39,914 bases of DNA from Thermoplasmata archaeon (GTDB taxonomy: Archaea; Thermoplasmatota; Thermoplasmata; Lutacidiplasmatales; UBA184). The stretch lies in contig JASHUS010000205.1 in NCBI GenBank assembly GCA_030039865.1, positions 1 to 39,914 on the forward strand. The letters are read 5' to 3'. A program made the translations under genes and the position numbers. This document shows positions 8,860 to 36,465 of this stretch, piece after piece (the stretch's first letter is position 1; each line of letters starts with the position of its first letter). The notes under the pieces are model-generated. The model saw only the letters and a program-made list of their open reading frames with translations, was not told the origin of the DNA and did no database searches.

Positions 8860-10605
8860 CTACCAGCCCACCGGCGCGCCCTGGTTCTCGTGATCGAGCC
8901 ATCGCTGGAGCGGGGCGAAGTACTCCAGCAGCGCCGCCGCGTCCATGCGGCGCTCGCCCGTCGCGGCCTCGAGCGCGTCGGGCCACTCCCGGCGGCTGCC
9001 GAGCTCGAGCATGGACCGCAGACGTTCGCCGGCGGCGCGCGAGCCATGGATCGTCGCGCGGTGGAGCGGCCCGGAAGAACCCGCTGCGCGCACGAGGGCG
9101 CGGTGGAACTGGAACTCGAGGATGTGCGCGAGGAAGTAGCGCATGTACGGGGTCCCCGAGGCGACGTGGAACTTCGCGCCCGGGTCGAAGTCCGCCTCGC
9201 TTCGGCCGGGCGGCGGGGCGATCCCCTGGCGCTCGGTGCGCATCTCCCACCAGGTCCGGTTGTACCGCTCGGGGCCCACGTCGCCCGAGAAGACCCGCCA
9301 GCGCCATTCGTCCACGACGAGCCCGAACGGCAGGAAGGCGAGCTTCGCGAGCGCGCGGCGGAGCAGGTAGGGGATGTCATCGGTCGGTCCCGACGTCGCG
9401 TCGAGGAGGCCGATCGCCGTGAGGTACTCCGGCGTGACCGAGAGCGCGATCGTGTCGCCGATCGCCTCGTGAAAGCCGTCGTGCGCGCTCTCGCGGAAGA
9501 GGAACGGCTGGCGCGCGTAGGCCCGCTGGTAGAAGTTGTGGCCGAGCTCGTGGTGGACGACGAAGAAGTCCTCCTCGCTGATCTCAAGGCACATCTTGAG
9601 ACGAAGGTCGTCGGCGTAGTCGATGTCCCAGGCGCTCGCGTGGCAGACGACGTCGCGGCCGGGAGGGCGCACGAACATCGAGCGCTCCCAGAACGTCGCG
9701 GGCAGGGGCTCGAACCCGAGCGAGAGAAAGAATCGCTCCCCGTAGCGCACGAGCTCTTGCGGTGTGGTCTTCCGCTCGCGCAGCACCGCGCCGAGGTCCC
9801 AGCTCGGCCCTTCGGTGTCGGGCGCGAGGAGCGGGTAGATCCCGGCCCACGATTGGGCCCACATGTTTCCGAGCAAAAACGCGGGGATCGGTCCGGTGTC
9901 CGGAACGAGCTCGGGACCGTACCGGGCGCCAAGCCGCCGCCGGACATAAGCGTGGAGCGATCGGTAGAGAGGACGCACCTGGTCCCAGAGGCGCCCCGCC
10001 TCGCGGGCGAAGTCGTCCGCCGGCATGTCGTACTTCGCGCGCCAGAGGGCCCCGAGGTCCGGATAGTCGAGCTCGCGGGCGCCTCGATTGGCGAGCTCGA
10101 CGTACCGGGTGAAGTCGGAGCGCATCGGGCGGGCGATCGCGTGCCAGCCGCTCCAGGCCTCCTCGAGCGACGCCGGGTCCCGGCTCGTCTCCAGGATCCG
10201 CGAGAGTCCCTGCACATCGAGCGGCGCCGGGGATCCCCGAGGTTGGTAGCGCCCCCGGGCGTACAGGGCCTGCATCGCGCTCGACAGGCGGCTCAGCTCC
10301 TCGGCCTCGCCCGCGCCGGACGGCGCGATGAGCGTGAACGATCGGCGCAGCAGCTCGAGCTTGCGCGCGTCGACCGGACTCCGAGTTCGCCCTCGCAGGG
10401 CCGACGAACGCTTCGCGAGGTCCGTCGCCGCGGTCATCAGCCGGGCGGCCGCGAGCGAGGTGAGCTCCTCCGTGTCGGGTGTGATGAACGTGCAGTAGAT
10501 CCAGTCCGCGCGGTTCGCCTGGATCGACAGTTCGAGCAGGCTGCGCTCGGCCTGGTCGAGGAACTCGGCCGGATCCGCGGGTGGGACGTCGAGGGGTTCG
10601 CTCAA
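8860..10605 (-). CDS. Peptidase family M2 (angiotensin-converting-enzyme-like peptidyl-dipeptidase)
   Basis: 581 aa. Zinc motif [15 protein letters not shown] followed by [12 protein letters not shown], the ACE-type third-ligand Glu context. N-terminal [13 protein letters not shown] resembles ACE W.Y.TNIT. The start is TTG at 10605. No signal peptide. Confidence 0.85.
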
Positions 10606-10780: not shown

Positions 10781-10930
10781 ATGTCGGACGGTTACGAAAG
10801 ACCCACAACACTCGCTGCGATCGCGCTCGACTACGTCCTCTCGGACGAGCCGCCCTGTCCCCTGGCCGCGCTCCCGTGCCACTTCGACTACCTCACGGGC
10901 CGCTTCCCGGCGTTCGCCGAGGGACGATGA
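10781..10930 (+). CDS. Possible small ORF (49 aa), unknown function
   Basis: Found by hand and below the track cut-off: MSDGYERPTTLAAIALDYVLSDEPPCPLAALPCHFDYLTGRFPAFAEGR. High GC3. TTTATGTA box at 10743-10750. The stop overlaps the next ATG (ATGA at 10927-10930). Confidence 0.25.
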   Translation: MSDGYERPTTLAAIALDYVLSDEPPCPLAALPCHFDYLTGRFPAFAEGR

Positions 10931-11145
10931 GCGAGGGCGCCGAGCGATCGGGTCCGGTTCCGCCGGCCGCCCGATGGTCGCTCGGGGTACCCAACGTCTT
11001 GGGCTCGGGGAGTCCGCGGGGATACGGCATGCGGCCGAAGCTCTCCCCAGAGGCGGCCGCGGCGTTCGCCACGTACGTCGACTCGGCCCGCGCCCGCGCG
11101 GCGATCGAGGGGCGGACGCTGATCTACACGGTGCGCTGGAGCTAG
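10927..11145 (+). CDS. Possible small ORF (72 aa), unknown function
   Basis: Internal ATG of ORF 10876..11145: MSEGAERSG…MRPKLSPEAAAAFATYVDSARARAAIEGRTLIYTVRWS. High GC3. 4-nt start/stop overlap with the preceding small ORF, and 4-nt convergent overlap with rnhA. Confidence 0.3.
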   Translation: MSEGAERSGPVPPAARWSLGVPNVLGSGSPRGYGMRPKLSPEAAAAFATYVDSARARAAIEGRTLIYTVRWS

Positions 11146-11687
11146 GCCGGCCCGCGCGGCCGATCCTCGTCGGGCCCGGTCCCGCGCGATCTCTCGGATT
11201 CTTCGGCGCGGTCCCGTCCGCCGGAGGCGCGCGCCTCATCGAGGGCCTGCTTCGAGAGCGCGTCGGCCCGGGCGTTCTCCTCCCGGGGAATCCAGCGGAA
11301 GTCGACCCGAGCGAACGCCTTCGTGAGCGACCGCAGATGGTCGTGGTACGCCCGAAGATGGTCGGCCTTGACCTCGTACTCGCCGGTCATCTGCCGGACG
11401 ACCAGCTGGCTGTCCCCGAACAACTCCACCGGGCCCGTGTAGCCGTGCCGGGCCAACCACTCGAGCGCGCGGATCGCCGCGACGTACTCTGCGACGTTGT
11501 TCGTCGAATGCGCGGACCCCGGCGCCACCGCGAGCCCGCAGTCCTCGTGCAGGAACCCCGCCCCTTCGAGATGGTACCCGAACGTCGCGAGACCCCCGCC
11601 CCGCGGAGGCTCGCACGCGCCGTCGAAATGCGCGCGCACGGATCCCCCGAGCGACGCCACGCCCCGGGGGATCTCGCGGTCGTCCAT
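11142..11687 (-). CDS. rnhA: Ribonuclease HI (archaeal type 1 RNase H) with a charged C-terminal tail
   Basis: DEDD contexts FDGAC, NNVAEYVAAIRAL, GDSQLVVRQM and NARADALS. 181 aa. Confidence 0.85.
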   Translation of the reverse strand: MDDREIPRGVASLGGSVRAHFDGACEPPRGGGLATFGYHLEGAGFLHEDCGLAVAPGSAHSTNNVAEYVAAIRALEWLARHGYTGPVELFGDSQLVVRQMTGEYEVKADHLRAYHDHLRSLTKAFARVDFRWIPREENARADALSKQALDEARASGGRDRAEESERSRGTGPDEDRPRGPA

Positions 11688-11697
11688 CGATGGGCGC

Positions 11698-12219
11698 CTA
11701 GCCGTGGCGGGGACGAACGGAAGTGCCGGAGCCCGAGGGCCGAACGCGACCGAGCTTCGGGCAGTTGCAGAACGCCTCCGCGCGATGGCAACCGGGGCAG
11801 TCGGTCCGATCCGCCGCCATGCCGAGGGCCCGGCCGCAGACCCGGCAGTCGCGCGGGCGCGCGCACCGGGGGCAGTACGCGAGGTCCCACGCGATCACTG
11901 TGTGGCAGTACCGGCAGTCGACCGCTTCGCGGGGGCTGAACCCGGCCCGGCTCGCGGAGGAAGCGGGCGGCGCGCGGGGGCCCGCCGGCCGGTTCGAGCG
12001 GACGTCGGGGTTCCCGAACGTGCCCCCGACCGTCGTCCGCTCGGGGTTCGCTTGGACGGCCCCGATCATGATGACGAGGAGTCCGACCGGCGTGATGAAG
12101 ATGCCCGCCTCCTGCAGCGTCGTGAAGACTTCCGCGCCGTAGAGGACGATCGGCGACGCGACGAGTCCAAGGCCGCCGAGGATGACCGCTACCCCGAGCA
12201 GGGCGATCGAGCGGTTCAT
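11698..12219 (-). CDS. Membrane-anchored zinc-ribbon protein, unknown function
   Basis: Two N-terminal TM helices, a Pro/Ser linker, then Cys pairs CRYCH…CPRC…CRVCG…CPGCH…CNC. Ends 10 nt upstream of the rnhA start on the same strand. Confidence 0.6.
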
Positions 12220-12307
12220 CGGTTCGGTGCGTCGGCGAGCCGCCGGCGTTCGATGATAGCCGGCTACCGCCTCATAAAACGGTCGGCGCTCGCGGCGCCG
12301 CCGGGCC

Positions 12308-12313
12308 TTTTAG
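12308..12313 (+). promoter_or_regulatory. TATA-like box upstream of the cyclophilin gene
   Basis: TTTTAG lies 23-28 nt upstream of the ATG at 12336. Confidence 0.3.
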
Positions 12314-12335
12314 GACCGCCGGGTTGGGGGCGCGC

Positions 12336-12806
12336 ATGGCGAACCCCACCGCGACGATCCGCACGACGCTCGGCGACATGAAGATCGAGCTCTTCCGCGA
12401 CCGAGCCCCGAAGACGGTCGAGAACTTCGTGACCCTGACCCGGAAGGGGTTCTACAACGGGCTCACCTTCCATCGCGTGATCCCGGGGTTCATGATCCAG
12501 GGCGGGGACCCGAAGGGCGACGGGACGGGAGACCCCGGCTACGAGATCAAGGACGAGTTCCACCCGACGCTCCGCCACGACGGACCCGGCGTGCTCTCGA
12601 TGGCGAACCGGGGGCCCAACACCGGGGGCAGCCAGTTCTTCATCACCCTCGCTGCCACGACGTGGCTCGACGGGAAGCACGCGGTTTTCGGCAAGGTGCG
12701 TTCCGGCCAGGACGTCGTGGAGAAGATCGCCGCGGTCCCTCGCGACAAGAGCGACCGCCCCACGTCGCCGGTCCGTATCGTCGAAGTGACGATCGCGGGC
12801 GCGTAG
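12336..12806 (+). CDS. Cyclophilin-type peptidyl-prolyl cis-trans isomerase
   Basis: [31 protein letters not shown] and [11 protein letters not shown] motifs. ATG at 12336 inside track ORF 12324..12806, which starts at TTG. Confidence 0.93.
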
Positions 12807-13428: not shown

Positions 13429-13952
13429 ACACGGCCCCCCGTCGGCCGTCGGACGCACAGTTCCGAATTCGCTCCTCTCCCCCTCAGCTCGAGATCCGCC
13501 GATGCGAGCGCTATCATTTCGAAATCAGGTATCTGACGGTTAGCCTATAAACTCTCACCGAAACGCGGGTAAGCTGGTCACGGGCGGGTCGACGGCCGGG
13601 GCCGGCGATGGTGCCTGTCGTCTCTCAGTCGCGGTCGGTATGGGGTCCCCCCGGACGCGGCGCGATATCCCGCGAGAGCCTCGTCACTCAAAGCCCCGCC
13701 TTCCGCTGGATCTCCTGGAACCGGGGATCGAGCCGAACGTACTCGAGCCGGGGGATCGAGCCGCGATACTTTGCGAGCGCATCGGCGTCGTGCCACTCAA
13801 CATCCCCGATCATGTCGGCGGGTATGAATCCACTCCCGGGTCAGTCGACTGGCCCGCGTAACGATCGCGTCAGATCCCCCGGCGTCCCCGCCCCGCGGGG
13901 ACGAAATTCCTCTGGGGGCAGCCGGGCCGATTCCGAATGGGAACGGAATACT

Positions 13953-15887
13953 CTAGTTGGATATGCCGTAGGATTTGCGGACCTTATGAAGCAGGTCCGC
14001 GAATCGAGGATCCGCCGCCATGTTTCGGTACGAGGGGTCTCGAAGTTCGCCGGCCCCCGCGACCTTGCGCTCAATCATGTCTTCCACGAAAGGAAAGAAA
14101 CGCTCCCGATCACCGATGAGCGCCATCGCATACGATACTTGGCCAATCTCACCCAGCGTCGCCGGCGAGTCACGGGCGGCGGCGAGGGCCAGAGTCTCAT
14201 CGATCAGTCGCGAAGCTTCCTCCTTGTTCCCGAGGTGCGCTTCGATCCGGGCCTGGACGCTCTTGTACCTCATCTCGTCCGGCTCTAGTCTTCGGATGGT
14301 TCGCAGATCCCGGTAGGCATCCTCTCGCCGTCCCTTCGTGGCGTTTAGCACGGCGCGGGCGAAGTAGGCCCAGGAGAGGGCGGGCTCCATTTCGATCAAC
14401 CGAGTCGTGGCCGCGAGACATTCGTCGTAGCGGTCCGCGAAGTAGTACGAGATCAGGAGAAACCACGTTCGAGACGATGGAAGCGGGTCCAACTCGTAGG
14501 CCCTCTTCGCCTCGTCGAGGGCTTCGTCCAGCCGACCCAGTCCCCGCAAGACATACCCGTACCGTTCATGGGCGTCGGCGTGACTCGGGTTCAGCGCGAG
14601 CGCCTTCTTGAGTTCGACTTCAGCGCCCGGGTAGTTGTCCCGCATCATCACGTTCGCCATGGCGACATGAGCCTCGGGCAATGTACCGTCGAGTTCGATG
14701 GCCCGCCGAGCGAGCGACTCGGCCCGTCCGTACCCCTCGTCCGGGTCGAGGTATCCTGCCGCTGCCAGATCGCGGTAACAATCGGCCAGCCCGGCAGTCG
14801 CCCGCGCCGACTCCGGATCGAGCTTCATCGCGTCCTCGTAGAGGACCTTGGCCTGTTCGGTGGCTTCCCGGCCGATCTTCGCCCACAAGGCGAGAGCTCG
14901 AAGGCAGAGGGCGTGAACTTCGGGACTTTCCGCCCGGCCCCCGACTCGAGGGGAGGGGAGCTTCAACGCTTCCGCAATCTTGCGCGCGATGTCGGACTGG
15001 GTCTCGAAGACGTCGTCCAGGCTCCCATCGTAGCTCTGTGACCAGAGATGGCTATCTCGCTCGGCGTCGATGAGTTGAACAGTGATTCGCACGCGGTTAC
15101 CGGACTTCCGAACGCTACCTTCGAGGAGTTTTCCGGCCTTCAGTTCGCGTCCGATCTCGGGCAGGCTCTTCGAAGACTGCTTGTACCTCATCGCGGAGGT
15201 CCGCGAGATCACGCTCAGACCGCCGATCCCGGACACCGCCGAAATGATCTCGTCCGTCATCCCGTCGGCGAAGTACTCGTCGCTGGCGGCGGGGCTGAAG
15301 TTGGCGAGGGGAAGAATCGCGATTCGATTCTGATCGACGGCGTACGGTACCGCGCCACCCCTTTCCGTCCACGGCATGACCACCTTGAACAATTCCGGGG
15401 GCGTGCTCACGTTCTTGAGTGGCTTCGGACCGAGGCTCGTCATGGGCAGTTCGAATTTGTTCTGGACCTGGTCGTAGACCTGCCGAGAGATACAGACCCC
15501 GCCGGCTTCTGCGAGCGGCTCGATCCGTGAGGCCACATTCACCGCGTCGCCCGAGATGTCGTCCGGGGTTCCCACCACGTCTCCGAGGTGCACCCCGACC
15601 CGGAGGAGCACCTGCCGCTCGGACGGCCGAGAGAAGTTCGCCTCGCGGCTCGTCCGCTGAATCTCGTAGGCGCACCGCACGGCCTCGAGCGCGTTCGGGA
15701 ACTCCACCAGGAAGCCGTCTCCCATCGTCTTGACTTCCCTCCCCCCGTGGCGCTCGAAAATCGGTCGAAGCATCGCGCGCTGTTCTCCAAGCAACTCGAG
15801 CGAGAGCGCTTCGTCGCGCTGACCGAGCGCCGTGAAGCCGACGATGTCGGTGAACATGATGGCGGAGAGACGACGGACCGACGCCAC
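13953..15887 (-). CDS. Class III adenylate/guanylate cyclase fused to a TolB-N-like domain and TPR repeats
   Basis: 644 aa. Cyclase homology domain with FTDIVGFT, KTMGDGFL and GDAVNVASRIE (metal Asp residues, Lys, Asn-Arg all present). This is followed by IAILPLANFS…YFADGMTDEIIS…LIDAERDSHLW, then repeated TPR-like helices. GTG start at 15887. The gene is visibly A/T-richer than its neighbours. Confidence 0.85.
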   Translation of the reverse strand: MASVRRLSAIMFTDIVGFTALGQRDEALSLELLGEQRAMLRPIFERHGGREVKTMGDGFLVEFPNALEAVRCAYEIQRTSREANFSRPSERQVLLRVGVHLGDVVGTPDDISGDAVNVASRIEPLAEAGGVCISRQVYDQVQNKFELPMTSLGPKPLKNVSTPPELFKVVMPWTERGGAVPYAVDQNRIAILPLANFSPAASDEYFADGMTDEIISAVSGIGGLSVISRTSAMRYKQSSKSLPEIGRELKAGKLLEGSVRKSGNRVRITVQLIDAERDSHLWSQSYDGSLDDVFETQSDIARKIAEALKLPSPRVGGRAESPEVHALCLRALALWAKIGREATEQAKVLYEDAMKLDPESARATAGLADCYRDLAAAGYLDPDEGYGRAESLARRAIELDGTLPEAHVAMANVMMRDNYPGAEVELKKALALNPSHADAHERYGYVLRGLGRLDEALDEAKRAYELDPLPSSRTWFLLISYYFADRYDECLAATTRLIEMEPALSWAYFARAVLNATKGRREDAYRDLRTIRRLEPDEMRYKSVQARIEAHLGNKEEASRLIDETLALAAARDSPATLGEIGQVSYAMALIGDRERFFPFVEDMIERKVAGAGELRDPSYRNMAADPRFADLLHKVRKSYGISN

Positions 15888-15906
15888 GACCCGAAACCTG
15901 CTCCCG

Positions 15907-15916
15907 TTAGATTAAG
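15907..15916 (-). promoter_or_regulatory. TATA-like box upstream of the cyclase gene
   Basis: CTTAATCTAA (minus strand) lies 20-29 nt upstream of the GTG at 15887. Confidence 0.35.
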
Positions 15917-15998
15917 CCCTACACCCCGGAGCCGGCGGAGTCCCACGTCGGAAAGTCGGACCGCTCGGGCTCGTCTTGCCCCAGGCGCCGGTCCGTCG

Positions 15999-16012
15999 AG
16001 TGGACACGGGGG
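15999..16012. repeat. Exact 14-nt copy of the tRNA-Ala 3' end (att-like)
   Basis: AGTGGACACGGGGG at 15999..16012 equals 17150..17163 (two trailer nt plus the discriminator, acceptor 3' strand and T-stem 3' strand of tRNA-Ala, plus-strand reading). Confidence 0.7.
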
Positions 16013-16021
16013 CGTCCGCAT

Positions 16022-16040
16022 CCCCCGGGGGAGTGGACGC
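16022..16040. repeat. Second, imperfect copy of the tRNA-Ala 3' end/trailer junction
   Basis: CCCCCGGGGGAGTGGACGC versus CCCCCGGGGAAGTGGACAC at 17140..17158 (17/19). Together with 16013-16021 it forms the hairpin GCGTCC…GGACGC. Confidence 0.5.
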
Positions 16041-16073
16041 AGAGCCGACGCCCTTCCTGGTTTTGCGAGGTTA

Positions 16074-16262
16074 TCAGACCGATTTGCTCCCGGCCCAGAT
16101 CGTCGGCGCTTCGAGATAGCCTTCGAACACTTCGGTGAAGTTCCGGTTCAACTCGGCCCGGGTCTTCCCCACGGCGATACATCCGGGGAACTCCCGGCAA
16201 TACGCCCAGTACGATCCGCCCTCGCGAACGACGACCTCGGTGAACGACGTAGGATCGCTCAT
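16074..16262 (-). CDS. HicB-like (UPF0150) antitoxin-fold small protein without a DNA-binding extension
   Basis: MSDPTSFTEVVVREGGSYWAYCREFPGCIAVGKTRAELNRNFTEVFEGYLE matches the HicB N-terminal pattern (…GGY.A..P.lPGC...G.T.eEa…i.e.i..yLe). ATG at 16262 within ORF 16074..16322. Confidence 0.6.
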   Translation of the reverse strand: MSDPTSFTEVVVREGGSYWAYCREFPGCIAVGKTRAELNRNFTEVFEGYLEAPTIWAGSKSV

Positions 16263-16522
16263 CCCGGCTCGACCTTCTTCGACTTCGCCTTTGCGAGAGC
16301 ACCGTCGATCCACTTCTCCCACCGCTCGTCCTCGAAAACGGCGAGGCGGGTCATCCCGGCGTTGGAGAAATCAATCCCCTCTCCCTTCGGAGGGAGGCTT
16401 CGGACAAGCAGGCCGAACCGGAAGTCGGGCTGCAGGGCCCAAAGCTCGCCGAGCTTCCGGAGGGTGAGGTCAATCCGCTTCGGGTCTGTCACTCGCCAGG
16501 CCTCTCGGGCGTAAGCGGCCAT
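16259..16522 (-). CDS. Hypothetical 87-aa protein, weakly YihD/DUF1040-like
   Basis: ATG ORF. Its stop overlaps the HicB-like start by 4 nt (ATGA). LGELWALQPDFRFGLLVRSL recalls E. coli YihD (…AWQKEPDFNLLQFLQKL). It does not resemble HicA. Confidence 0.45.
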   Translation of the reverse strand: MAAYAREAWRVTDPKRIDLTLRKLGELWALQPDFRFGLLVRSLPPKGEGIDFSNAGMTRLAVFEDERWEKWIDGALAKAKSKKVEPG

Positions 16523-16554
16523 TTAAGTTGGTGGGCGCGGAGAAATTCGCCGTA

Positions 16555-17058
16555 CTAATGCGGAATCGACTGCCTGACCACCGCGACCGCTTCGCCTGAG
16601 ATAACGAACGATCTCGACCAAGACGGATGCTTCGGAGGATGATAGACCAAAACGTACCGTTGAGATACTTCGGATGCCTCGGTAGTCGAAGGCCCGGATA
16701 GAACCGAGACATTGGCCCAAGAAATCCGCAGATAGTGGTCTCGGAATAGATATCGACGGGCCAGAATGAGGCCGCCCGGGTCCGATCCTACGTGATGGGG
16801 AATGAGGTCAACAGCCGGATAGATCTCTAGACAGAACACCCAACCTACCACAGCGAGCAAGACGGTGAACGGAAGGATCGCGAACAGCCCTGGTCGCGCT
16901 GCGACCGCTAATCCGGCGCCGACAATCGCAAGATCCAACGCCCCAACCAGAATCCAGATCATTTTCCTCGTCTTCGGATAGTCGGCGTTGAGGGCTAAGG
17001 GGCCCGGCGCCTGACTCGCGACGGACTCGGTATCGGACGCGAAACTTGGCCGAGCCAT
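16555..17058 (-). CDS. Two-TM membrane protein with a roughly 100-aa C-terminal soluble domain (architecture reminiscent of bPH/DUF304 proteins)
   Basis: ATG at 17058 (MARPSFASD…) inside ORF 16555..17124. TM helices MIWILVGALDLAIVGAGLAVAA and LFAILPFTVLLAVVGWVFCLEIY. A/T-richer codon usage. Confidence 0.55.
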   Translation of the reverse strand: MARPSFASDTESVASQAPGPLALNADYPKTRKMIWILVGALDLAIVGAGLAVAARPGLFAILPFTVLLAVVGWVFCLEIYPAVDLIPHHVGSDPGGLILARRYLFRDHYLRISWANVSVLSGPSTTEASEVSQRYVLVYHPPKHPSWSRSFVISGEAVAVVRQSIPH

Positions 17059-17151
17059 GGTTAGATTCCGAGACGACCACGAGAGTGATTTCGGCCCCCG
17101 CCTCGACCAGAGCGAGAGCACCAAGTAATGGATTCGAACCCCCCGGGGAAG

Positions 17152-17223
17152 TGGACACGGGGGGATTTGAACCCCCGACCTCTGCTTTGCGAAAGCAGCG
17201 ATCTTCCGCTGATCTACGTGCCC
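17152..17223 (-). tRNA. tRNA-Ala (anticodon CGC), no intron, CCA not encoded
   Basis: Minus-strand read: GGGCACGTAGATCAGCGGAAGATCGCTGCTTTCGCAAAGCAGAGGTCGGGGGTTCAAATCCCCCCGTGTCCA. Acceptor GGGCACG/CGTGTCC with the G3:U70 Ala identity pair, anticodon loop TTCGCAA, T arm GGGGG-TTCAAAT-CCCCC. Confidence 0.95.
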
Positions 17224-29562: not shown

Positions 29563-29645
29563 GCCGGGGTGGCCGAGCGGCCAAAGGCGGCAGACTCAAG
29601 ATCTGCTCTCGCAGGAGTTCCCAGGTTCGAATCCTGGCCCCGGCA
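29563..29645 (+). tRNA. tRNA-Leu (anticodon CAA), long variable arm, CCA not encoded
   Basis: GCCGGGGTGGCCGAGCGGCCAAAGGCGGCAGACTCAAGATCTGCTCTCGCAGGAGTTCCCAGGTTCGAATCCTGGCCCCGGCA. Acceptor GCCGGGG/CCCCGGC, anticodon stem GCAGA/TCTGC with loop CTCAAGA, T arm CCAGG-TTCGAAT-CCTGG. Confidence 0.95.
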
Positions 29646-29738
29646 CATGAACCCTCCCCTGGGCGTCGCCGAACGGAATCCTTCCGGGGCCCTCGGCGCC
29701 CTCCGCGAGTTCGATCTTCGCTCGGGGAAGCATCGTCT

Positions 29739-30008
29739 CTAAAGTCCGTAGGCTTCGTCGTGGTGGGCCAATCTTAGCAAACGCACTACCTGTTGTTTGA
29801 GCAAAGGTTCGAAGAGCAGAACATACGATCCTGCGACGTGCACTCGGCGCACTCCTTGAAGGGGGGCATGCAGGGGCTTGTAATGGAGAGGGTTCCGGAG
29901 AATTTGGTCCACCTTGGTTTCGACAGCGCGTTTGAATCCGGCGTTGCGTGCGCAGAGCTTCCGGTAGTCACGCTCGAACTCAGGGGAGACCTCCAGGTCC
30001 CAGCTCAC
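29739..30008 (-). CDS. RelE/ParE-family type II toxin
   Basis: 89 aa. …PEFERDYRKL…ILRNPLHYKPLHAPLQGVRRVHVAGSYVLLFEP…VVRLLRLAHHDEAY follows the RelE/ParE pattern (NP…k.L.g.l.g..R.rvG.Yr….v.i..v.hR..aY). Confidence 0.8.
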   Translation of the reverse strand: MSWDLEVSPEFERDYRKLCARNAGFKRAVETKVDQILRNPLHYKPLHAPLQGVRRVHVAGSYVLLFEPLLKQQVVRLLRLAHHDEAYGL

Positions 30009-30241
30009 CGCGACTCACCAAAGACTTCGTTCAGGGATCGGATCTTCCGAAACTTACCCTTCCGGATCCGCTGGAGGTCTGCTGCGAAATCGGGCCGGAG
30101 GGCCGGGTCGAGGATTGTCTCCTCATAGGCGGCGACGATACTCTCGAGTGCCTCCGACTTGCCCTTGAGTCCGTCTCGGGCCTTGACCACATTGACGACG
30201 CGATTAGCGTGCTCCGAGAGCTCCACGACAGCCTTGGGCAT
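30005..30241 (-). CDS. Cognate antitoxin (DUF2683-like archaeal antitoxin)
   Basis: MPKAVVELSEHANRVVNVVKARDGLKGKSEALESIV…. Its stop overlaps the toxin start by 4 nt. ATG 30241 lies about 30-36 nt downstream of CTTATAT (minus strand, 30271-30277). The track ORF extends to 30292. Confidence 0.65.
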   Translation of the reverse strand: MPKAVVELSEHANRVVNVVKARDGLKGKSEALESIVAAYEETILDPALRPDFAADLQRIRKGKFRKIRSLNEVFGESR

Positions 30242-30270
30242 AATCCAACGTAACTCCATGTAACGTCGAG

Positions 30271-30277
30271 ATATAAG
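30271..30277 (-). promoter_or_regulatory. TATA box upstream of the antitoxin-toxin operon
   Basis: CTTATAT (minus strand) lies 30-36 nt upstream of the ATG at 30241. Confidence 0.4.
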
Positions 30278-30368
30278 AGCTATAGGTCCCACGTGCCGTG
30301 TCCAAGAGCGACTGCGGTTAGCGAGGAGATTTTCGCTCGAGTCACGTTCTCGGATTCGATCTTTCCTG

Positions 30369-30386
30369 CGAAGCCTGGCCCCGGCA
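30369..30386 (+). repeat. Direct repeat of the tRNA-Leu 3' end (att-like)
   Basis: CGAAGCCTGGCCCCGGCA versus CGAATCCTGGCCCCGGCA at 29628..29645 (T loop, T stem, acceptor 3' strand and discriminator). 17/18 identical, same orientation. Confidence 0.8.
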
Positions 30387-33732: not shown

Positions 33733-36465
33733 ATGTCGGGCACGGACCTCCGTCCCTCGCAGGCCGGTGCCGAAGAATCGAGCATCCCGGTCTTCGAGCG
33801 GCCCCCGGCGCTCATCCAGTGGCTCGACGCGACCGAGGATTCGATCCGGCTGAGCCTCGCGAAGCTCCGACTGTTCGAGCGGATCTTCCTCCTGCGGCGC
33901 GACTGGATGACCCGCATCACGATGCTGATGCTGATCGCCGGCCTCCTCTGGGGCGCGGTCGGAGGGTTCGACGCCTTCGGGTTCCAGACGCAGGTGGTCG
34001 CGTACGCCACCGGTTCGGTCGTGCACCTGTCGAACGTCGAGATCTACTCGTCGGTCACGCTCCACGGCATCCGCGAGCTGTTCGGCTTCGCCCAGCAGCT
34101 CGAGATGGCCGCGCTCGGATTCCTCGTCGTCAACGCGCTCGGCCTTGTGCCCCGGCACAAGTGGACGCTCTACTCGACCGTCATCCTGCTCAACGGCTCG
34201 ATGCTCCTGATCCAGGGACCGATCTACTTCCTCCCGTTCAACGACAACTACTTCCCGGCGAGCGGATGGTACTTCCTCTCCCCGCTCGGGATCAACGGGC
34301 AGAGCGCGTACGTCGTCAGCCCGCTCTTCTTTCTCGGCTGGCTCGCGCTGTGCGCCGCGCTCTTCCTGTGGACCGCCTGGATGGTGATCCACCTGCGCGA
34401 TTGGTACCGGCAGCACCGCGCCGAGGCGCAGGGGCGGCGGTACCCGGTCTTCCTCTGGTTCGTCGTCGGCACGCTCGTCCTCGTGCCGCTGACGTACGGG
34501 CCGCTCGTCGTCTCGACCGCGTGGGACATCGGTAGCGCGTACGCGGGCTGGCCGATCAGCGCGCTCGCCAACCAGGTTATCTTCTGGATGTTCGGCCACA
34601 GCCTCGTCTACCTCCTCTTCCTCCTGCCGATCGTCGCCCTCTACGTCCTCATCCCGATCCTGGCGCGCCGGCCCCCCTACAGCTACCGCTGGGCGGTCGC
34701 GTCGGCGATCCTCTTCGTGCTCCTCACGCCGCTCCTAGGGCTCCACCACCTCTACCTCGCGCCCCTCCCGGCGTGGTCGACCTGGCTCACGATGGCGCTC
34801 TCGTTCGCCATCGCGCTACCGTCCGCGATCACGTTCTTCTCGGTCTGGATGACCGTGAAGGGCGTGCCCGCGGGGCAGTGGGAATGGAACGCGGTCGCGC
34901 TCTTCGCGCTCCTCGCCTTCGCGGGGGCGATCTTCGGCGGGCTCTCGGGCCCCGCCCTCGCCACGATCCCCTGGGACGTGGACGTGCACAACAGCCTGTT
35001 CGTGCTCGGCCACTTCCACGCCATGACGATCCTCGCGATCGCGGCCGGCGGGTACGCGCTCCTCTACGCGGTCTTCCCGATCCTCACCGGCCGGCAGTGG
35101 TTCTCCGCCTGGCTCGCGCGGCTCCACTTCCTCTTCACGGTCGTCGGCGGCGCGACGATCGTCGTCGCGTTCGAGGAGCTCGGCAGCCTCGGCGTCCTGC
35201 GCCGCGAGTTCATCCTCCCGCATCTCGCCGCGATCACGAGCTACCAGCTGATCCTCCTCGGCGGGATCGTCGTCATGCTGGGCGGCCAACTGTTCTTTGT
35301 CGCGAACGGCGCGCTCACCGTCTTCCGCGGGGAGCTCTACAGCGCCGCCGGGCTGTCGTTCGACGAAGCGATCCGGCGGGCCGCCCAGTCGACGGTGCCG
35401 AAGCGGCGCCGTCGGGTACCGATCGCCGACGTGCCGTTCGTCCGCCGGGTCTCCCGCGCCCGGCGCGAACGGATCGAGGCGGCCTGGGTCGGTACCGTCA
35501 TCGTGCTGCTCGCGGGCGTTCTCGCGGCGGCCACGCCGGGGGCGTTCGCGGTCGGGAACTCGATCAACGGCGACGCGGCCGACCCCGGCGTGAGCGAGTG
35601 GATCGATCTCCACGGCCAGCAGTACTACTGGAGCGCGACGGAGTCGGGCGCGGTCAACGGGACGTACGACAACGCGCTCGTCGTCTTCGCCGGCGCGTCG
35701 GTCGAGGTGAACCTCTCGGCGAGCGGGGCCACGCAGTCGCTCCTGATCCCGTTCCGGGACCAGGCGGTCGTCGACGTCCAGGCGGTCCCGGGCACGCCCT
35801 CGTACGCCTCGTTCACCGCTCCGAGCGTCGCTGGGGTGTACGGCGCCCCCGACGGCGAGTACGACGGGCCCTGGTTCGGCCAGGACGTCTCGGCGCTGAT
35901 CGTGCTGCCGACCGGCGCCGACACCGGTGCTTCCCTCGCCAGCTTCCAGTCGAACGGGGGCGGTGGGGACATCTACAATCCTCCCGTCCTCCCCGCCGCG
36001 ACGGCCGACCTCGTCGGGAATCCCGAAGGGCTGTTCAACGACTCTGTCCCCGGCCCGACGCTGTCGGCGAACGTGGTCGCCGGGGGCGGTCCGGTGTCGC
36101 TAGAGTGGACCGTGCCGCTCGACAGCATCGGCATCAACAACTATCTCGTCAACGTGACATCGAACAGCCCGAACGCGCAGCAGCAGTACGTTCTCCAACA
36201 CAACGGCACTCTTCCCTATCCCACGGGACTCTGGAGGATCGATCCGGCCCGCGGGCTCGCGCCCGTCAACGGCACGCTCGGTCCGCTCGTGATCGGGCGG
36301 AACGTCTCACTGAGCTCGGACCTCGTCCCGGGCGCGTACCTGTACGGGCTCCCGAGCCCGGTCGACTACTCGTACGACCCGGCGGGCGACTCCGGGCCGG
36401 GGGTCGGGATCCAGACGGGCGACGTGATGGGGCTCTGGGGGGTGCTGTGGGTGGGCGGGGCATGA
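33733..36465 (+). CDS. Heme-copper oxidase subunit I (B-family/ba3-like) fused to an extra TM helix and a roughly 305-aa Cys-free extracellular tail of cupredoxin-like domains
   Basis: 910 aa. Ligand contexts: TLHGIRELFGF (helix II His), FWMFGHSLVY (CuB His with the cross-link Tyr), GLHHLY (helix VII HH), VLGHFHAMT (helix X HxH). After helix XII comes a basic linker, then the TM helix AAWVGTVIVLLAGVLAAA, then the tail from about nt 35548. IDLHGQQYYWSA…VEVNLSASGATQSLLIPF…VPGTPSYASFTAPSVAGVYGA resembles the subunit II cupredoxin fold, but the CuA Cys/His/Met residues are absent. Confidence 0.85.
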   Translation: MSGTDLRPSQAGAEESSIPVFERPPALIQWLDATEDSIRLSLAKLRLFERIFLLRRDWMTRITMLMLIAGLLWGAVGGFDAFGFQTQVVAYATGSVVHLSNVEIYSSVTLHGIRELFGFAQQLEMAALGFLVVNALGLVPRHKWTLYSTVILLNGSMLLIQGPIYFLPFNDNYFPASGWYFLSPLGINGQSAYVVSPLFFLGWLALCAALFLWTAWMVIHLRDWYRQHRAEAQGRRYPVFLWFVVGTLVLVPLTYGPLVVSTAWDIGSAYAGWPISALANQVIFWMFGHSLVYLLFLLPIVALYVLIPILARRPPYSYRWAVASAILFVLLTPLLGLHHLYLAPLPAWSTWLTMALSFAIALPSAITFFSVWMTVKGVPAGQWEWNAVALFALLAFAGAIFGGLSGPALATIPWDVDVHNSLFVLGHFHAMTILAIAAGGYALLYAVFPILTGRQWFSAWLARLHFLFTVVGGATIVVAFEELGSLGVLRREFILPHLAAITSYQLILLGGIVVMLGGQLFFVANGALTVFRGELYSAAGLSFDEAIRRAAQSTVPKRRRRVPIADVPFVRRVSRARRERIEAAWVGTVIVLLAGVLAAATPGAFAVGNSINGDAADPGVSEWIDLHGQQYYWSATESGAVNGTYDNALVVFAGASVEVNLSASGATQSLLIPFRDQAVVDVQAVPGTPSYASFTAPSVAGVYGAPDGEYDGPWFGQDVSALIVLPTGADTGASLASFQSNGGGGDIYNPPVLPAATADLVGNPEGLFNDSVPGPTLSANVVAGGGPVSLEWTVPLDSIGINNYLVNVTSNSPNAQQQYVLQHNGTLPYPTGLWRIDPARGLAPVNGTLGPLVIGRNVSLSSDLVPGAYLYGLPSPVDYSYDPAGDSGPGVGIQTGDVMGLWGVLWVGGA

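Follow-up and report, generated by a model that had tools for sequence, protein, structure and literature searches.

This work concerns a 39,914-nt stretch of DNA from a Thermoplasmata archaeon (contig JASHUS010000205.1 of assembly GCA_030039865.1, positions 1 to 39,914; hereafter the window), and in it a tRNA-Ala(CGC) gene whose 3' end recurs downstream, on the far side of a small gene cassette. We consider it likely that the two copies of the repeated 14-mer are the cores of the left and right attachment (att) sites, attL and attR, left when a mobile element was integrated site-specifically at the 3' end of this tRNA gene; the insert itself has no integrase. Features of this kind are known: tyrosine integrases leave such attL/attR scars at tRNA 3' ends, and the one proposed here encloses an integrase-less cassette resembling a toxin-antitoxin (TA) system. 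The junctions comprise the following features (L numbers denote related loci):

17152..17223, minus strand: intact tRNA-Ala(CGC) gene (ARAGORN, 17151..17223; Rfam RF00005, 68 bits)
17150..17163, minus strand: proximal copy of the direct repeat, the putative attL core (motif count; repeat search, family D20)
15999..16012, minus strand: distal copy of the direct repeat, the putative attR core and displaced original tRNA 3' end (exact match; alignment to L014)
15888..15998, minus strand: native tRNA trailer and cyclase leader/promoter region, including the conserved GGGCTTAATCTAACGG (aligned to L014 and partly to L051)

Read on the tRNA strand, the 14-mer AGTGGACACGGGGG becomes CCCCCGTGTCCACT and comprises the 3' strand of the T-stem, the 3' strand of the acceptor stem, the discriminator, and two trailer nucleotides. 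The tRNA gene is the integration target and represents the attB side of attL; it has the G3:U70 pair and no encoded CCA. An exact recurrence of the 14-mer at 15999 and 17150 had been reported in the initial annotation of the window, and it was borne out. AGTGGACACGGGGG occurs at 15999..16012 and 17150..17163 and at no other site of the window even with one mismatch, and the 13-nt core with up to two mismatches still returned just these two sites. Shuffled sequences gave an expectation of ~0.04 chance matches in the window, with two copies reached in 0 of 100 shuffles, and the scaled probability of a same-strand copy within 1.2 kb downstream is ~6e-4. The interval between the repeats measures 1139 bp. 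The tRNA-Gln gene of the same window, used as an internal control, shows no comparable repeat.

The distal site had been described as a displaced tRNA 3' half. A displaced end is indeed present; its extent is smaller than proposed, since it amounts to the 13–14-nt putative crossover core alone (T-stem 3' strand, acceptor 3' strand, and discriminator). Rfam detected no tRNA-like sequence at the distal site at E ≤ 10, the intact tRNA being the sole match, and the T-arm-like hairpin suggested there folds no better than shuffles (z −0.4). A tRNA pseudogene or displaced 3' half was rejected on both grounds.

These data also bear on whether the repeat could be a chance G+C-rich match, or a terminator or hairpin that happens to resemble a T-arm, with native DNA in between. 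Such an explanation draws on a genome of ~70% G+C, on the palindromic CCCCCGGGGG, and on the intergenic position of the site, where a terminator is possible; it has to contend with the low chance expectation, the unremarkable folding, and the tRNA-Gln control. It is refuted by the comparative recurrence described below, in which ~15 other species have this repeat on the downstream side of the same tRNA and next to none is seen on the upstream side, and by an alignment to a relative's flank that begins at the repeat, and we give it hardly any weight.

Comparison with relatives identified the interval as an insertion. Related loci were collected by a genome scan with the neighbouring AAA_assoc_C protein, which yielded 80 loci, all titled Thermoplasmata archaeon metagenome-assembled genomes (MAGs), from soil and peat. 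In ~72 of them, the same tRNA-Ala(CGC) lies downstream of that gene, and the sequence that follows the tRNA varies from species to species. The window also corresponds, as the reverse complement, to part of contig JASIEX010000022.1 of MAG GCA_030045725.1. The nearest relative by its ABC ATPase is L014 (85% aa), where tRNA-Ala(CGC) is followed by a 110-nt leader and then by an orthologous cyclase gene. The 132 nt after the distal repeat of the window align to this tRNA-to-cyclase leader and start exactly at CCCCGTGTCCACTC; so the tRNA 3' end has received 1139 bp of additional DNA, and its original version now stands displaced as the distal copy. The comparative alignment proposed as a check in the initial annotation thus placed the flank of the distal repeat directly after the tRNA in L014.

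A second pair of loci repeats this arrangement. L034 is empty (trailer CTCGGAC...), whereas L024, with a 96% identical ABC ATPase, is occupied by a 912-bp insert with one nucleotidyltransferase-like gene, followed by CCCCCGTGTCCC and then by TCGGAC.... Base composition, a further check that had been put forward, also sets the insert of the window apart from its flanks: its G+C content (GC) is 0.605 compared with 0.70 in the upstream flank, and windowed values fall to 0.555–0.60 inside the interval against 0.68–0.73 in the surroundings.

Inserts turn over rapidly at the tRNA-Ala 3' end, which is a hot spot. A direct repeat of this end was found 0.7–7.6 kb downstream in ~15 of 72 related species, with a length of 12–18 nt, or ~23 nt in L075. 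Allowing up to one mismatch, the tRNA 3'-end 12-mer has 19 matches in 457 kb of downstream same-strand sequence, compared with 1 match in 671 kb of upstream same-strand sequence and 6 in 1.13 Mb on the opposite strand, a downstream same-strand excess with a binomial P of ~1e-8. The relatives' inserts are also lower in GC than the upstream flank. Their cargo differs each time and includes cyclase-TPR, pyruvate-kinase-like, methyltransferase, MFS, ATP-grasp, large surface protein, RelE/RHH, and HicB-like genes, and the nearest relatives (92–97% identity) usually have no insert or a different one. Two observations concern individual repeats and cargo. The distal repeat of L075 bears that species' own T-stem variant (CCTCC) and reaches into the T-loop. 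A methyltransferase plus RHH/RelE cassette is found in the distant species of L037 (11422..13032) and L075 (10759..12265) and in part in L076, at 69–80% nt identity, with the same left boundary and different distal arms.

A tyrosine integrase is encoded at exactly this junction in some of the relatives. In L019, L021, L038, and L043, an open reading frame (ORF) of 421–427 aa, cluster c15, starts ~40 nt after tRNA-Ala; another copy is present in L050, also ~40 nt after tRNA-Ala, and L074 retains an N-terminal fragment only. Profile comparisons place c15 as a divergent tyrosine recombinase, with matches to the PHROG_1 integrase (8e-8), Pfam Phage_integrase (2.5e-3), the XerA model (down to 1.7e-10 among family members), and the Brujita integrase 5vfz (5e-3). 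Across 13 members, the motifs GLR, RPYVLR, MGH, and RY(T/S)TNK are invariant and correspond to R..YxxR..H..Y. A metagenome scan added 79 c15 loci (L175–L253), most of which, where enough upstream sequence is available, have the integrase 35–145 nt after a same-strand tRNA 3' end. The preceding tRNAs include Ala, Pro, Val, Gly, Arg, Ile, Phe, Lys, and Pyl, and c15 follows tRNA-Ala(CGC) again in about a dozen metagenome loci of L175–L199.

At many of the tRNAs with an integrase, a GGTTCRRAACC motif (with subfamily variants; GGTT[CAT]RRA..) begins at +11 past the discriminator. Among the genome loci, the motif stands at +11/+12 in 8 of 72, compared with 0.41 expected; of these eight, four carry the integrase and one a fragment of it, and the window itself is another, with GGTTCGAATCC at +12:

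17130..17149, minus strand: element-side arm adjoining the tRNA (P'-like), reading TTCCCCGGGGGGTTCGAATCC; GGTTCGAATCC starts 12 nt after the discriminator

The sequence GGGGGTTCGAATCC in this arm had been noted as a T-arm-like fragment immediately 3' of the intact tRNA. The sequence is there (minus strand, 17130..17143), and it is its interpretation as a piece of tRNA that has to be given up. Because the arm motif keeps a fixed +11/+12 offset behind many unrelated tRNAs, GGGGGTTCGAATCC/GGTTCGAATCC is better read as a putative attachment-site arm borne by the element than as tRNA debris. In L029, L037, and L076, the distal core comes after an inverted copy of the motif, GGATTCGAACCCCCC, and motif and inverted copy together would form the inverted-repeat-flanked core expected of a tyrosine-recombinase site. 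Putative attP or tandem junctions in L239 and L244 likewise place a 13-nt core over the same tRNA segment. A scan of IMG/VR for the arm-plus-core pattern AACCC-N8-20-CCCCGTGTCCA gave 83 matches, all random-looking.

In the proposed mechanism, a tyrosine integrase would insert a circular element by recombination between the element's 13–14-nt core and the identical final 13 nt of the tRNA gene. A replacement 3' end would come from the element and keep the tRNA intact, while the original 3' end, the native trailer, and the cyclase gene would be pushed 1.14 kb downstream. The likely enzyme would belong to the ~420-aa archaeal integrase family with R..YxxR..Y that is encoded behind the T-loop-like GGTTCRRAACC arm. 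This assignment, the crossover position, and the role of the arm motifs as integrase-binding sites are predictions from sequence. Excision would be expected to produce a circle with the junction ...CCCCCGGGGGATGCGGACG-CCCCCGTGTCCAC-TTCCCCGGGGGGTTCGAATCC... and a restored empty site, GGTTCAAATCCCCCCGTGTCCAC-TCGACGGACCGGCGCC. The insert of the window retains the arm motif, a HicB-like two-gene module, and ~600 bp of low-GC DNA; as it has no integrase, it would therefore be either a deletion remnant of a larger element or a non-autonomous cassette.

Several results weigh against integration of this kind. Neither an integrase nor a fragment of one was found in the insert or the 40-kb window (Pfam, PHROGs; tblastn with 13 family members, E < 0.1), and no integrase remnant was detected by tblastn in the ~600 bp of low-GC DNA in the insert. 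Excision or an occupied/empty polymorphism was not found: all 11 contigs with an identical cyclase carry the cassette where upstream sequence exists, and every contig with an identical flanking cyclase or ABC protein that spans the site holds it. The c15 family, whose activity is predicted, had no similarity in 72,556 plasmid records (tblastn E ≤ 1e-3), a phage collection, or IMG/VR. The integrase-bearing elements show no distal repeat within the 9–11 kb of flank examined; their distal ends lie beyond that range, so their distal arm was never directly observed. The distal arm of the window, finally, is degenerate, with CCCCCGGGGG and the spacing kept and GGATTCGAA not.

The Logan contigs that carry the cassette (L008–L011) all break inside the T-arm region of tRNA-Ala, probably at a branch of the assembly graph. 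Breaks of this sort are to be expected where co-occurring species have an identical tRNA, and they are uninformative on excision.

Next to the distal core lies a further junction-like sequence:

16022..16040, minus strand: second imperfect core copy and start of a P'-like arm (GCGTCCAC-TCCCCCGGGGG), with a 17/19 match to 17140..17158

This second copy had been recognized at the outset, and the comparison of CCCCCGGGGGAGTGGACGC (16022..16040) with CCCCCGGGGAAGTGGACAC (17140..17158) reproduced the 17 identities in 19 positions. It probably marks the junction of another element that was lost almost completely by deletion, or else is a degenerate P arm. Similarly doubled cores are present in L049 and L028.

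Direct repeats at tRNA 3' ends could also arise as target-site duplications made by a casposon-type Cas1 casposase, in which case the cassette would be a miniature or decayed casposon. The resemblance lies in the target and in the repeat: family-2 casposons insert at tRNA 3' ends next to the T-loop and are flanked by 14–15-bp direct duplications (PMC5137440; PMC4779613), a length that the 14-nt repeat of the window equals. Across the relatives, however, repeat length is variable, from 12–18 nt to ~23 nt in L075, and the repeat lies inside the tRNA, of which it covers the last 13 nt, whereas the duplication of the A. boonei casposon overlaps the tRNA by 5 bp (PMC5137440). Terminal inverted repeats are absent, as the left end compared with the reverse-complemented right end gave z < 1.5 in 13 of 15 elements (z = 0.9 for the window). 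Cas1 and PolB were not found in the insert of the window by profile scans, or among those ORFs of the relatives' inserts that were scanned or read, and it is the tyrosine integrase that occupies this very junction in relatives. A casposon was rejected in view of the missing inverted repeats, the missing Cas1/PolB, and the different placement of the repeat with respect to the tRNA; we regard this origin as very improbable.

Within the insert, the following features were distinguished:

16259..16522, minus strand: 87-aa gene (77 aa if begun at 16492), which precedes and pairs with the HicB-like gene (MAG gene calls)
16074..16262, minus strand: 62-aa HicB/UPF0150-like gene, a putative antitoxin, with a 4-nt overlap with the upstream gene (gene calls, profile matches)
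16555..17124, minus strand: low-GC stretch (0.555–0.60) with a 167/189-aa ORF that has hydrophobic segments (composition)

Three small genes and no recombinase had been proposed for this interval. The absence of a recombinase agrees with our searches, while the gene count falls to two credible genes: all MAGs with this locus have gene calls for the two small, overlapping genes, and the third ORF is left uncalled in the NCBI MAGs. With a GC at third codon positions (GC3) of 0.65, no homologue, and no Pfam or PHROG match, the third ORF (16555..17124) is doubtful as a real gene. The stretch occupies the position of the integrase gene in autonomous elements.

The 87-aa protein belongs to a rare family, with 13 remote relatives among 1.8 billion proteins (exhaustive HMMER), whose alignment (A2) shows the conserved pattern RDPxRI..LGELW..PD.R..ED.WE. 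It had no Pfam, PHROG, or PDB match, and its structural model, three helices at moderate confidence (pLDDT 72), had no fold match. The 62-aa protein has weak HicB/UPF0150-like matches in each of two independent libraries: Pfam UPF0150 (E = 1.5e-4, short of the gathering score) and PHROG 497 'HicB-like' (E = 1.3e-4). A 63%-identical homologue of the 87-aa protein is encoded in L254, an unrelated soil contig that lacks any tRNA, and is again followed by a HicB-like gene; since the pairing recurs in an unrelated context, the two genes form a portable module. From this organization, the pair is probably a TA system, and its addiction effect would favour its survival in remnants. As in HicAB-type type II modules, there are two small overlapping genes, the downstream one is weakly HicB/UPF0150-like, and the pair is portable between contexts. 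The module differs from these systems in its upstream partner, which is not HicA: no HicA toxin adjoins the HicB-like gene, and the partner found there is the rare three-helix protein. The HicB matches, moreover, remain below curated thresholds.

The same pattern had been claimed for tRNA-Leu (29563..30386) in the same window, and here too the claim proved sound, with an architecture like that at tRNA-Ala:

29633..29645 and 30374..30386, plus strand: 3' end of tRNA-Leu(CAA), CCTGGCCCCGGCA (13 nt), and its repeat 741 nt downstream (two copies compared with 0.03 expected)
29739..30008, minus strand: ParE toxin gene between the tRNA-Leu repeats (ParE_toxin, E = 2.7e-10)
30005..30241, minus strand: small DUF2683-like partner of ParE, between the same repeats

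A GGATTCGATC motif lies ~15 nt before the distal core of tRNA-Leu. A further 11-nt tRNA-Leu match at 34149 sits in apparent coding sequence and was judged to be due to chance.

Whether the insert at tRNA-Ala is a remnant or a mobile cassette can be weighed from its size and contents. For the insert of the window, decay seems more likely than mobilization in trans. The autonomous, integrase-bearing elements are larger than 9–11 kb, compared with 1.14 kb here, and decay is further suggested by the truncated integrase of L074, the degenerate distal arm, the doubled core at 16022..16040, and the presence of the cassette in all site-spanning contigs. TA pairs would be the last genes lost in such a process. 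It seems rather unlikely that the cassette is instead non-autonomous and mobile, with attachment arms at both ends and moved in trans by an integrase encoded elsewhere, so that the tRNA-Ala 3' end serves as an acquisition platform. This would suit the many repeat-bounded inserts that are small (0.7–5 kb), lack an integrase, and hold ordinary cargo rather than virus or plasmid genes. The conserved sequences kept at both ends in L017, L051, and L077 could be taken in the same sense, but internal deletion of larger elements likewise keeps both ends, and the truncated integrase of L074 looks like decay in progress. Very close relatives differ in the presence of an insert (L024 compared with L034, 96%; L017 compared with L015, 97%), and the methyltransferase plus RelE/RHH cassette, with a left boundary ~55–60 nt from the tRNA, is common to the distant L037 and L075 (69.5% nt) and absent in near relatives. 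The cassette of the window, however, yielded no circular form, empty-site polymorphism, or second copy, its distal arm is degenerate, and no integrase was located in its genome in a search that covered the 40-kb window.

In a broader form of this idea, the 3' ends of tRNA-Ala(CGC) and tRNA-Leu would be cassette-acquisition sites, at which small integrase-less modules with a 13-nt core and T-loop-mimicking arms are captured, exchanged between species, and excised in trans by the YxxR integrase family. We hold this to be similarly speculative, with only a small chance of being correct; recognition of the universal T-loop box by the YxxR family would, if true, explain how so many tRNAs are targeted.

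Beyond the insert, the adjoining DNA has features of its own. The element GGGCTTAATCTAACGG (15904..15919, minus strand) precedes the cyclase gene in L014 and L051 as well as in the window and looks like an archaeal TATA-like promoter element. The adenylate-cyclase/TPR gene itself (13953..15887) has a GC of 0.61–0.67, below background, and its orthologues in L014 (10939..13038) and L051 (11795..14010) have the tRNA on one side and, on the other, a distal repeat whose arm is conserved. The cyclase/TPR gene may therefore be older island cargo; in the window, no distal core survives after it. In L082, L083, and L085, tRNA-Ala is directly followed by a block of PPIase, 173-aa, RNase H-like, and 72-aa genes, and the same block is found in the window at 10927..12806, inverted and displaced by ~4.5 kb. 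An inverted ...ATCCACTCCC at 13828..13837 (repeat pair I19) resembles a core-plus-arm junction, and together with the inverted block it may be the trace of an att-mediated inversion. Farther along, at 8860..10605 on the minus strand, lies a gene for a 581-aa Peptidase_M2 protein (angiotensin-converting-enzyme family), which is kept in L082 at 59% identity.

These results settle the annotation of the locus: the 14-mer pair bounds an insertion, the DNA of the 1.14-kb interval is foreign, the leader of the cyclase gene is the original tRNA trailer, and the 'T-arm-like' pieces are to be read as probable attachment-site arms rather than tRNA debris. Of more interest than the scar itself are its wider setting and the integrase family associated with it. 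Among uncultured soil Thermoplasmata, the locus is found occupied in some and empty in others, which makes a natural series, and an uncharacterised integrase family is encoded behind tRNA genes of many kinds. A testable att architecture follows, with a 13-nt core and T-loop-like arms at fixed offsets, and the family offers candidate tools for site-specific integration in archaea that still lack genetics. That TA pairs have repeatedly survived in the smallest inserts agrees with the notion of addiction modules outliving their carrier elements.

Small recombinase-less modules bounded by recombination sites, often with TA genes, accumulate at one site in cis-mobilizable elements (CIMEs), integron cassettes, and Xer-dependent dif modules, and the inserts described here resemble them in this respect. 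They differ in that their sites are tRNA 3'-end cores instead of attC or dif, and in that no array-associated integrase is present in the window; mobilization in trans is hypothetical here.

Archaeal attR scars and arrays provide a further parallel, with a partial tRNA 3' end at the distal border and tandem or nested events at one tRNA (PMC9897764; PMC6563490). Fragments of tRNA genes are known as attR sites (PMC9897764), and att sites in Thaumarchaeota are short, with a median of 17 bp, and occur in tandem arrays (PMC6563490). The fragment found here is 13–14 nt, compared with 44 bp in Pyrococcus yayanosii PYG1, and the inserts are unusually small and integrase-free. As with the short att sites of other mesophilic archaea, the site was verified by empty-site comparison (PMC9897764; PMC6563490).

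The elements with pNOB8-/SNJ2-type integrases, in which the att site lies outside the integrase gene, also share features with this locus. The SNJ2 integrase uses a 14-bp core at the 3' end of tRNA-Met, and the tetrad R..YxxR..Y is the signature of pNOB8-type integrases (PMC5861418). The locus of the window differs from these elements in that its insert has no integrase and its host belongs to a mesophilic soil lineage of Thermoplasmata. For the c15 family, no sequence relatedness to pNOB8-family integrases was found beyond weak, generic integrase and Xer matches, and as c15 had no match in plasmid or phage records it is assigned to neither named family here. Shared with pNOB8-/SNJ2-type elements are the tRNA 3'-end target, the short direct repeat, the restored tRNA, and the displaced original end. 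In the relatives of the window, moreover, the integrase gene adjoins the att site, which lies upstream of it (tRNA end 35–145 nt upstream), stays intact, and encodes a protein with the R..YxxR..Y tetrad.

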